DNA from: Planctomycetota bacterium
GTDB lineage: Bacteria; Planctomycetota; UBA1135; UBA2386
Length of the DNA: 64,000 nucleotides
Assembly: GCA_965223545.1 (NCBI GenBank)
Contig: OZ245006.1
Location: 3,136,001-3,200,000, forward strand
Reading direction: 5' to 3'
The translations under genes were made by a program, and so were the position numbers. Position 1 is the first letter of the stretch; every line of letters begins with the position of its first letter. This document shows, one piece after another, positions 31,502 through 41,367 of the stretch. The notes below the pieces were generated by a model, which was not told the origin of the DNA, did no database searches, and was given only the letters and a program-made list of their open reading frames with translations.

Positions 31502-32416
31502 ATGCTCGACGGTGCAAGTCGCTCCTTCGCCACCTTGCTCGTGCTCGCCGCCGGCGCTGACCCGGCGGCCGGGCAAGGCGTGCTCGACGTGCTCGACGGG
31601 GAGACCCTGTACGACGGGGGCTCGCTCGTGTCCTTGGGTTTCGAGCTCGACCGCGGCGAGGTGCTGCGCCGTGGAACACGGCGCGCCCCGGACCCGCTGG
31701 CCCGCCAGCAGACCGCGATGCGGACCACCCTGGCGTATCAGTACGGCGCGCGCCACGATCTGCAGCTCGGCGTCGCCCTGAGCGTCGTCGACCTCGAGCG
31801 CCGCGGCGCCGGACTGCGGCAAAGTGCCGACGGCCTCGGTGACGTCGAGCTGCTGACGAAGTGGCGGTTCTACCGTTGGGACGCGCACGCGGTGGCGCTG
31901 AACGTCGCGCTCGTGGCCCAGGTCTCGGTGCCCACCGGAAAGGACGACGTCCGCGACTCCACCGGCACGCGGCTCGAGCCGGAGCTGCAGCCCGGCTCGG
32001 GTGGAATCGATCCGGCGCTCGGCATCGCCGCGACGCACGAGCCGGGGCGCTGGCGGTTCAACCTCGCGACCTGGTACCGCGTGCACACCGACTCGGACGA
32101 CGACGGGTTCCGGCGGGGCGACCGCTGGATCGTCGAGGCGGCTGCCGGCAACCGCTTCTGGCTCGAGCCATACCCCGGCCCGTTCATGCGGCTGGATGTC
32201 GCCTTGCGCTACTACCACGAAGACCACGACCGGTTCCGGGGGGCCCTGCCCAACACCGGCGGCGAGCGCGCCACGACCACGGTCAACCTCGCCTTCCGGC
32301 CGCAGCCGGCGCTCGACTTCCAGGTCGCCGTCGAGGTGCCCCTGTGGCAACGCCTGGCGGGCACCCAGCTCGGCGAAGATTGGGCGCTCGACCTGACCTT
32401 CGGCTACCGATTCTGA
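31502..32416 (+). CDS. Outer-membrane beta-barrel 'transporter' (Phenol_MetA_deg-like)
   Basis: Signal peptide; '[13 protein letters not shown]', 'VPTG', 'LQPGSG', 'PNTGG', C-terminal GYRF. Confidence 0.82.
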
Positions 32417-32480
32417 GGCGCGCCCGATTCGACCGCGCCCGGGGTTGCTTTTTGTCCCGAGTCCTGCACATCTGGGCTGC

Positions 32481-33014
32481 ATGAAGTCGCCGAGCATCCC
32501 GATCGCCGTCCTCTTGCTCGCCGGGGCCTGCGCCGCTCCGGGTCAGCCGATCTCCGCGCAGCCGGACGACTTCGCGTTCGTCGAGGTCCAGCTCCGCGGT
32601 TGAACTTGAAACGAGGAGCTTCTGGGTCTGCAGAAGCTCTTCGAGGGCCTGTACGGTCCCACCCCGCAGATTGACCTCGACCTGCAGATCGCGCGCGCGC
32701 GGGTGCCCACTCCGATCGAGCTGGACTTCACCGCGCTCGCCGACGGCGTCGTGCGCAACAACGTCGGCGTCGACGGCATCCGCCTTTGGGCTCGCGGTCG
32801 ACTCGAGGCGGATCACTTCGTGTTCGACGCCACCGGCCAACGGCTGCCACTGGCCGCACCTGCGCCAGGGGCCCGCGGCCCGTGGTTCGAGTTTGCGGTG
32901 ACCCACTTCGAATCGACACGATCGCCTCGCTTGCAGTGGCTAGCGGATTCGCACACCGCCGGTGCACCGGCGATGGCGCCACGATCCGAAGGTCCCAGCA
33001 CGGCGCCTCGCTGA
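32481..33014 (+). CDS. Putative selenoprotein: exported HMA-like lipoprotein with U41-T42-U43 (177 aa if both TGA are read through)
   Basis: ATG 32481 gives MKSPSIPIAVLLLAGAC...VEVQLRG; TGA 32601, ACT, TGA 32607; the frame continues NEELLGLQKLF... into the track ORF 32703-33014 (same frame); SECIS-like hairpin right after. Confidence 0.75.
32612..32643 (+). promoter_or_regulatory. Bacterial SECIS-like hairpin
   Basis: Stem CGAGGAGCTTCTG / CAGAAGCTCTTCG (13 bp, one G-U pair), loop GGTCTG; the stem begins 2 nt after the second TGA. Confidence 0.75.
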
Positions 33015-33093: not shown

Positions 33094-33681
33094 ATGAAGA
33101 TTTCCGAGCTGATGTCCCAACCGGTCGTGTTCTGCCGACCGGAGGATTCGCTGGCGCGCGCCGCCGAACTCATGTGGAACCACGACCTCGGCTGGCTGCC
33201 GGTGGCCAACGCCGGCGGATCGTTGGTCGGGGTCGTCACCGACCGCGACGTTTGCATGGCCGCATGGCTGCGGGATCGCCGGCTGCACGAGCTGCAGGTG
33301 GGCGGCGTGATGAGTCAGGCCGTGACCACCTGCAACACCGAGGACACGGTCGAGGCCGCCCACGAGATGCTGCGGCGCGAGCGCCTGCACCGCCTGCCGG
33401 TGATCGACGGCGAGGGCAACCTCACCGGAGTCGTCACCATCAACGACCTCGCGCACCACGGCGCCGCGGGACCGGTGCACGATACGCTCTGCTCCGTGAG
33501 CCAACCGCGCAACGCCCCGGAACGCACCGTGCCACTGCCGAGCCCGGCGTCCAAACCAGCCGTGAAGCGCGCCAAGAGCACCACGAGCGCGAGTTCCACC
33601 AAGCAGACCAAGGCCAAGACCGCGAAGCCGACGCGTTCCACCGCAAAGACGACAAGCCGTCGTGCGGCGAAGAAGAAGTGA
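33094..33681 (+). CDS. CBS-pair protein with basic K/T/S/A-rich C-terminal tail
   Basis: 'GVVTDRD', 'HRLPVID..GVVTINDL'; tail KPAVKRAKSTT...RRAAKKK. Confidence 0.85.
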   Translation: MKISELMSQPVVFCRPEDSLARAAELMWNHDLGWLPVANAGGSLVGVVTDRDVCMAAWLRDRRLHELQVGGVMSQAVTTCNTEDTVEAAHEMLRRERLHRLPVIDGEGNLTGVVTINDLAHHGAAGPVHDTLCSVSQPRNAPERTVPLPSPASKPAVKRAKSTTSASSTKQTKAKTAKPTRSTAKTTSRRAAKKK

Positions 33682-40776: not shown

Positions 40777-41367
40777 ATGGATTCGGAATCTCCGCCCCGC
40801 CCGTCGTCACCTCCGCTCGCGGCCGGCCCCCTGAAGATCGTGCGCGCGAAGCTGCACGGCCTTCGGGTGACCGACGCCGACCTCAACTACCACGGCTCGA
40901 TCACGCTCGACCCCGACCAGTGCGACCTGGCCGGGATCTACCCGATGGAGTTCGTCGACATCTGGAACAAGTCCTCCGGTGCGCGGCTGTCGACCTACGT
41001 GATCCACGGCGACCCGGGCTCCAAGTGCTGCGTCCTCAACGGAGCCGCCGCCCGCACGAGCCAGCGCGGCGACGAGCTCATCGTCTGCGCTTCCCAGCAG
41101 ATCGACGTCTTCGAGCTCTACAACGTCAAGCCGCGCATCCTGACGTTCATGCCGGACAACACCGTCGACCAAGTGCTGCAGTACGAGGTCTTCAAGAGCG
41201 AGGCGCGCGCGTTCGACTTCCGCATCGTCGATGTGGACACCGAGCGCTTCGACGAGTGCCACACCTATCCCAACGTCGACGTCGCCGCGATCCGGCGCGA
41301 TCTCGAGCGCCGCGGCTGGGCGGCCGCGGAGATCGACAGCTTCTGCGATCAGTACTTGGCGCTATGA
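40777..41367 (+). CDS. panD: Aspartate 1-decarboxylase (pyruvoyl) with C-terminal extension
   Basis: AKLH, LNYHG|SITLD self-cleavage site, TY, LNGAAAR. Confidence 0.9.
   Translation: MDSESPPRPSSPPLAAGPLKIVRAKLHGLRVTDADLNYHGSITLDPDQCDLAGIYPMEFVDIWNKSSGARLSTYVIHGDPGSKCCVLNGAAARTSQRGDELIVCASQQIDVFELYNVKPRILTFMPDNTVDQVLQYEVFKSEARAFDFRIVDVDTERFDECHTYPNVDVAAIRRDLERRGWAAAEIDSFCDQYLAL

Follow-up and report, generated by a model that had tools for sequence, protein, structure and literature searches.

A putative two-selenocysteine lipoprotein with an HMA-like domain, encoded beside an outer-membrane barrel in Planctomycetota

The lipoprotein gene and its two in-frame TGA codons

We analysed a stretch of 64,000 nucleotides from a Planctomycetota bacterium (assembly GCA_965223545.1, contig OZ245006.1, positions 3,136,001 to 3,200,000, forward strand; hereafter the window), in which a gene at 32481..33014 encodes a putative exported lipoprotein with two predicted selenocysteine (Sec, U) residues in a U-x-U motif. 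The frame opens at ATG 32481 and is uninterrupted to 33012-14 apart from TGA 32601-03 and TGA 32607-09, and the residues at the recoded site are G40-TGA-ACT-TGA-N44, i.e. U41-T-U43. A first-pass annotation, made from the letters alone, had read this frame in the same way; as it had also stated, standard calling of open reading frames recovers the 3' portion (32703-33014) alone. The gene, its elements and its upstream partner are as follows:

31502..32416, + strand: COG4313/SphA-type (PF13557) outer-membrane beta-barrel gene, start codon inferred; from Pfam, model, Foldseek and synteny
32481..33014, + strand: full U-x-U selenolipoprotein gene (177 aa), from frame reading and homologs, ending in the true TGA stop 33012-14
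32481..32531, + strand: predicted lipoprotein signal peptide with lipobox-like LAGA-C17, from sequence and conservation
32571..32789, + strand: predicted HMA (ferredoxin-like) domain, residues 31-103, from AlphaFold2 secondary structure, Ccc2a 1fvq and Foldseek
32601..32603, + strand: UGA, predicted Sec41, in the Met column of GMxCxxC, from alignments
32607..32609, + strand: UGA, predicted Sec43, in the first-Cys column of GMxCxxC, from alignments
32612..32643, + strand: hairpin 1, resembling a Sec insertion sequence (SECIS), 13 bp, loop GGUCUG at 32625-30; from folding and covariation
32645..32659, + strand: SECIS-like hairpin 2, 5 bp here, loop UGUAC, with a conserved G-[G/U] at 32651-52
32790..32951, + strand: predicted second, all-beta domain, about residues 104-157, from the AlphaFold2 model

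The predicted product has a hydrophobic signal peptide and a lipobox Cys, and Cys17 is its sole Cys once U41 and U43 are read as Sec, in line with the earlier claim. This residue is invariant in 19/19 cases, and all 63 distinct UxU members examined have a Cys in the N-terminal region. The whole stretch was matched with 0 differences by contigs from two of four sequencing runs (one study, possibly the source of the window), while contigs of the other two span parts of it that do not include the TGAs. This agreement and the recurrence of the same TGAs in other genomes rule out an assembly error, for which the annotation had advised checking. A promoter scan around the gene found no promoter, and the number of terminator-like sites did not differ significantly from shuffled sequence (2 versus 0.8 +/- 1.2). 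A terminator-like hairpin followed by a T run, at 32430-32457, lies between the barrel and lipoprotein genes and is not above chance in the scan.

The window's genome (8.1 Mb, 91% complete) encodes tRNA-Sec(UCA), SelA, SelB and SelD, each of the three proteins scoring above its family cut-off, and thus has the complete selA, selB, selC and selD set for which a check had been proposed; its selD itself carries an in-frame TGA. In addition, selA is present in 24/24 same-family genomes and in 33 of the 34 phylum-sample genomes with a hit. The exception holds a Cys-only homolog, and the second Cys-only genome of that sample does have selA.

A profile built from the part of the protein downstream of the TGAs had matches in 12 of 41 related genomes, among them the window's own. 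Because all 12 read U-T-U-N after a lipoprotein-like N-terminus, the TGA-x-TGA arrangement is not a product of chance. Wider sampling, with overlapping samples and related genomes that are not independent, returned 38 matches from 35 of 401 genomes across the phylum: 28 UxU-type (one with a third Sec, U-T-U-N-D-U), two U-V-U-U-E-U, four UxxU, one CxxU, one U-L-S-H and two Cys-only CxxCxxC. Within the class, 64 of 301 genomes matched, and 61 of the 66 matches hold two or three TGAs, the other five being partial or weak. Named genomes were also scanned with a DNA pattern; of the 111 matches, 35 are due to chance and 76 are members, which were confirmed by hidden Markov model (HMM; 53/80) or by reading of the translation (23/31). 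The titles of the member genomes are mostly Planctomycetota or subgroups thereof, with one Glaciecola that is perhaps mis-binned. In total, TGA is retained in 64 distinct stretches and is aligned with TGC Cys codons of Cys relatives.

Homologs with Cys at the UGA columns are a minority of the family. CxC forms comprise P0029 and two loci with TGC codons (L182 and L183), CxS forms comprise P0009-11 and P0019, and two homologs (P0022 and P0061) have neither Cys nor Sec at the loop; a metagenome scan for CxS forms gave 95 pattern matches, none of which was confirmed. Both outcomes that had been named as support, homologs with Cys or TGA at these columns and conservation on either side, were therefore found. 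The usual marks of a bacterial selenoprotein, namely sel genes, a conserved in-frame UGA with homology on both sides and Cys homologs at the UGA columns, are all present and, together with a SECIS-like hairpin, strongly support the proposed recoding of both UGA41 and UGA43 as Sec.

The number of predicted Sec residues at the loop ranges from one to four among relatives. Two four-Sec genes (L053 and L058, from genomes G188 and G352) read U-V-U-U-E-U with adjacent UGA-UGA codons, and a three-Sec gene (L040, from G285) reads U-T-U-N-D-U; all three have both hairpins, and selA in the genome. At the other extreme, a paralog (L050:4113-4577, from G380) has a single Sec in P-U-L-S-H and several extra Cys, and the barrel gene is absent from the stretch analysed around it. 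A tree of 44 proteins had few well-defined groupings (7/41 branches starred), so we claim no order of motif evolution.

Tandem SECIS-like hairpins

The bacterial SECIS model, as given in the available part of a 2026 review (PMC13188914), consists of a stem with a G in the first two loop positions, placed 16-37 nt from the UGA. The annotation had expected a SECIS directly after the UGAs, and hairpin 1, which begins 2 nt past UGA43 (z -2.0 to -2.9 over four windows), agrees with this; a second hairpin in tandem had gone unnoticed. Across 12 genomes, 88% of cells in hairpin 1 are paired and 5 of its 13 base pairs show changes in both partners, a figure inflated by relatedness. Stability was compared with 300 synonymous recodings in 48 sequences of <90% identity, taken from the 64 distinct ones. 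Hairpin 1 had a mean of -16.7 versus -8.9 +/- 0.44 kcal/mol in the recodings and hairpin 2 a mean of -11.5 versus -5.5 +/- 0.37 kcal/mol, while a control window was unchanged (-1.9 versus -1.9 kcal/mol). The loop of hairpin 2 has G-[G/U] in 47/48 sequences versus 44% expected, in agreement with the loop rule of the published model (PMC13188914, in its available part), and the Arg57 codon is CGG in 18/18 cases versus 74/376 downstream. Across the window's genome, 31 TGA-x-TGA sites share a similar open-frame setting and the window site alone also has the hairpin signature, although this comparison is partly circular because its criteria were drawn from the UxU family.

Spacing from UGA to loop is 21 nt for UGA41 and hairpin 1, 15 nt for UGA43 and hairpin 1, and 40 nt for UGA43 and hairpin 2. 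Hairpin 1 therefore agrees with the model for UGA41, while both spacings for UGA43 fall just outside 16-37 nt. Both hairpins are also found in UxxU, three-Sec and four-Sec relatives, with hairpin 2 lying ~31 nt from the second UGA in UxxU forms, and they are weak or absent in 4/4 Cys-only genes. This pattern suggests a division in which the first UGA depends on hairpin 1 and the second on hairpin 2, with selection still maintaining hairpin 2 even though codon 46 has ceased to be UGA; a single SECIS could also serve both UGAs.

The same genome encodes a second HMA selenolipoprotein (G000:C1, about 6555050-6557300; L181:4554-6779) with a UxxU motif, I-T-U-M-G-U, which scores 54 bits against NF041115, below the cut-off. 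As its gene also has tandem hairpins, these may be general for two-Sec HMA genes. The gene comes after one for a MerR-family regulator, and the genes that it faces are MerTP-like and CopZ N-terminal-like.

HMA-like domain, barrel partner and known systems

An AlphaFold2 model with Cys in place of Sec (79 sequences, mean predicted local distance difference test score, pLDDT, 87.8) gave a beta-alpha-beta-beta-alpha-beta fold followed by four further strands. The top Foldseek matches of this U-to-C variant are all HMA domains (CCS, Atx1, PacS, CopZ and MerP; E >= 0.011), and VIA-align placed Ccc2a 1fvq first (Z 6.6, root-mean-square deviation 2.1, 71 aligned), other ferredoxin-like folds ranking closely after it. 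When the window protein and 18 homologs were scanned against Pfam and NCBIfam, no meaningful match was returned, the window protein staying below the 24.8 bits of PF00403; a sequence search of the PDB with the core alignment found chance matches only; and the ESM Atlas had no result for the window protein and, for the Cys homolog P0009, leads below 0.9 only, including an HMA cluster at 0.80. UxxU/CxxU relatives do score above 24.8 bits against PF00403 (4/17 scanned) and align to UxU members without gaps in the loop, which settles the assignment, so that an HMA fold for residues 31-103 is strongly supported by modelling and alignment.

A profile that includes the UxxU relatives aligns G-C-T-C-N-D-K with G-M-T-C-Q-S-C of ATP7B. 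These alignments place U41 in the column of the Met and U43 in that of the first Cys, the second Cys being lost. This gap-free register, with E46 in the second-Cys column, is that put forward in the first-pass annotation, and holds against both the UxxU relatives and solved HMA domains. The loop itself reads U-T-U-N-E-E and lacks the two Cys/Sec three apart of MxCxxC. That annotation was thus right about the domain and the site, but overlooked the second beta domain and the upstream barrel. In 17/63 UxU members (L031, L033, L037, L038 and 13 others), one hairpin of the second domain carries an additional CxxC as an insertion.

The upstream gene matches PF13557 (E 2e-10, 41.5 bits, cut-off 22), and its model (pLDDT 97) is a barrel related to FapF (5o67, Foldseek E 4e-12) and Pput2725 (4rl8, E 5e-12, TM 0.74). 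Its conserved Asp and Pro-Thr-Gly, matched by eye, resemble those described for COG4313 in the available part of PMC4493636. A barrel gene lies upstream on the same strand in 52/53 named member loci and in 38/39 UxU loci found by HMM, the sole exception in each count being a locus cut by a contig end, and in two loci the gap between the genes is 0.4-0.9 kb. Barrel genes also adjoin 4/5 UxxU/CxxU phylum-sample matches and both four-Sec genes, while Cys-only relatives adjoin a different barrel-like gene where context is visible. Pairing of the UxU lipoprotein and barrel genes is therefore strongly supported as far as gene order can tell. No other gene recurs widely beside UxU loci within flanks of 1.5-4.5 kb. 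An ArsR gene precedes the barrel in two genomes (L023 and L062); its best solved match is Rv1994c, and its score against the CmtR model is below the cut-off. In one of these (L062:1652-4900, from G071), an array encodes a barrel, a UxxU HMA lipoprotein, the CmtR-like ArsR, a barrel and a UxU lipoprotein. Within the window, a downstream CBS gene and an upstream HutI-like gene were considered as module parts and rejected, as neither recurs in related loci. The former (33094-33681) encodes a CBS-pair protein with a Lys/Ala/Thr-rich tail and is not conserved beside the module. Further away, 40777-41367 is an open reading frame that we take to encode an aspartate decarboxylase PanD-like protein with a C-terminal extension.

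The closest described family is NF041115, a UxxU metal-binding, HMA-like selenoprotein listed as a 'putative mercuric reductase' in Table 1 of PMC13188914, which likewise combines the HMA fold and a metal loop containing two Sec. Four distant UxxU relatives of the UxU family score 24-32 bits against it (cut-off 95), and the window protein, which lacks UxxU, has no match at E <= 1. The window family differs in its UxU motif (Met column and first Cys, with the second Cys lost), its extra beta domain and its fixed COG4313 barrel. PF00403 proteins such as MerP, CopZ and Atx1 share the fold and the GMxCxxC register, and export is predicted as in MerP, but the window family has Sec for Met, Glu/Lys for the second Cys and a lipoprotein signal. 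None of 19 core members matches Pfam, and unlike in MerP-type systems, no MerT or P-type ATPase recurs next to the UxU gene. The MerT/CopZ fusion selenoprotein NF045683 and a putative mercuric transport selenoprotein (PF02411), to which UxxU relatives have weak matches, also use Sec in heavy-metal transport; these are inner-membrane transporters, whereas the window protein is a predicted lipoprotein paired with an outer-membrane barrel. By the families' own tests, it is a putative HMA-metallochaperone-like protein outside both PF00403 and NF041115.

The first-pass annotation knew of no exported U-x-U HMA-like selenoprotein, and we likewise did not find the UxU HMA lipoprotein family in the accessible portions of the literature searched, including deep-Sep (a term search), BSepDB and Haft & Gwadz. 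The two ingredients are each known, however. HMA selenoproteins exist as NF041115, and a bacterial UxU that arose by gain of a second Sec has been reported in a rhodanese-related sulfurtransferase of Olavius symbionts (PMC1976440, as far as available), where the fold is unrelated and UxU is a variant form, whereas in the window family it defines a group spanning dozens of genomes. In its available part, the 2026 review (PMC13188914), covering 119 prokaryotic families, lists the UxxU HMA-like NF041115, MerT-type and P-ATPase selenoproteins, and its table has no UxU family and at most two to three Sec. For the barrel, which shares its fold with COG4313 channels (Pput2725, SphA and TcpY) and FapF, the parts of the literature searched named no metal-binding or selenoprotein partner of COG4313 channels. 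NCBIfam 20.0 has no model for core UxU members. Deng et al. reportedly described further candidate selenoproteins from metagenome-assembled genomes in 2026, which could include the UxU family. It is therefore likely, not certain, that the family is new to the literature.

Possible roles of the selenolipoprotein and its barrel

Soft-metal binding is established HMA chemistry, and we consider it somewhat probable that the window product is a membrane-anchored soft-metal chaperone serving the COG4313 barrel. The barrel and the UxU lipoprotein would form a two-gene outer-membrane module. SelB, acting on two tandem in-frame hairpins, would recode UGA41 and UGA43, a step that genomics strongly favours, and the product would be exported and lipid-anchored at Cys17. 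The two selenolates of its HMA domain, perhaps together with Asn44 and Asp/Glu45, could then form a binding site of very high affinity. To judge from the fold and the neighbouring genes, the cargo may be a soft metal ion or organometal, e.g. Cu(I), Ag(I), Hg(II) or Cd(II), and gene order suggests that it would be captured or handed over at the co-encoded barrel.

Several observations weigh against this proposal. The fold scores are modest, and loss of the canonical second Cys leaves a site that is not a textbook CxxC. CxS forms retain the Met-column thiol only, which is more like a single redox nucleophile. Hairpin 2 lies beyond the consensus distance from UGA43, and one UxU member (L047) has no hairpin 2 in register. 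None of the conserved residues of the barrel is Cys, His or Met, and besides the two ArsR cases no metal gene recurs within the flanks searched. Characterised COG4313 channels have been proposed to carry hydrophobic molecules (PMC4493636, in its available part); this proposal and the CxS forms make simple ion uptake less likely. Both could, speculatively, be reconciled with a metal-related role if the cargo were an organometal.

A redox role is the main, though unlikely, alternative, in which a selenol/diselenide (or selenenylsulfide) cycle of U41/U43 would reduce or activate a sulfur, selenium or organometal compound entering via the barrel. The CxC and CxS homologs resemble redox motifs, the Met-column residue is kept longest and the extra CxxC of some members would fit; moreover, a redox function is assumed for most selenoproteins (PMC13188914) and the published UxU sits in a sulfurtransferase (PMC1976440), according to the available parts of these sources. 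Against it, the fold is HMA rather than thioredoxin-like, no reductase or electron carrier recurs nearby, and a CmtR-like sensor is found in two loci. We regard it as improbable that the lipoprotein stores selenium or acts on the barrel structurally or as a gate; loading of two to four Sec residues would then tie the amount of full-length protein, and with it pore function, to selenium supply. The variable Sec number at the same loop and the homologs with neither Cys nor Sec there point this way, and closely spaced UGAs should make synthesis strongly selenium-dependent, but that two specific positions are strictly conserved as Sec, and exchanged for Cys, speaks for a chemical role of the atoms there.

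The reading of the TGAs as Trp codons, as true stops of a split gene or pseudogene, or as assembly errors is effectively refuted. Protein databases do hold mostly fragments that begin downstream of the TGAs, and amongst full-length entries (C-T-S in four, C-S-C in one and no Cys in two) a single protein, P0002, has W-T-W. These were the outcomes named beforehand as telling against Sec, yet the genomes have the TGAs, and as the close relatives of P0002 (L161 and L163) carry TGA, its W-T-W is probably a gene call that reads TGA as Trp. Since TGA is the ordinary stop of both the window gene and the upstream barrel gene, the organism does not generally read it as Trp; its tRNA-Trp has a CCA anticodon and tRNA-Sec is separate. 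Retention of TGA opposite TGC Cys codons and the agreement of the contigs with the window sequence also contradict this reading.

Taken with its barrel, the proposed soft-metal chaperone may represent an undescribed outer-membrane metal-capture system of Planctomycetota, which we put forward tentatively: a barrel with a Sec-tipped HMA lipoprotein, where Sec stands for the loop Met and a tandem double SECIS would allow decoding of two to four UGAs in a span of six codons, some of them directly adjacent (UGA-UGA), and hairpin 2 would act from beyond the accepted distance. The work brings in a further selenoprotein family, whose members are truncated in standard gene calls, and finds predicted Sec where a classic metal loop has its Met. 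The family provides a natural series on one scaffold (CxxC-type, CxxU, UxxU, UxU, UxUxxU and UxUUxU), whose four-Sec form surpasses the maximum of two to three Sec in the review table (PMC13188914, in its available part). The tandem hairpins bear on how bacteria, in which a SECIS is needed after each UGA, decode UGAs a few bases apart, and the constant pairing with a barrel points to a metal-related function in a channel of the COG4313 group, which has until now been linked to hydrophobic cargo.
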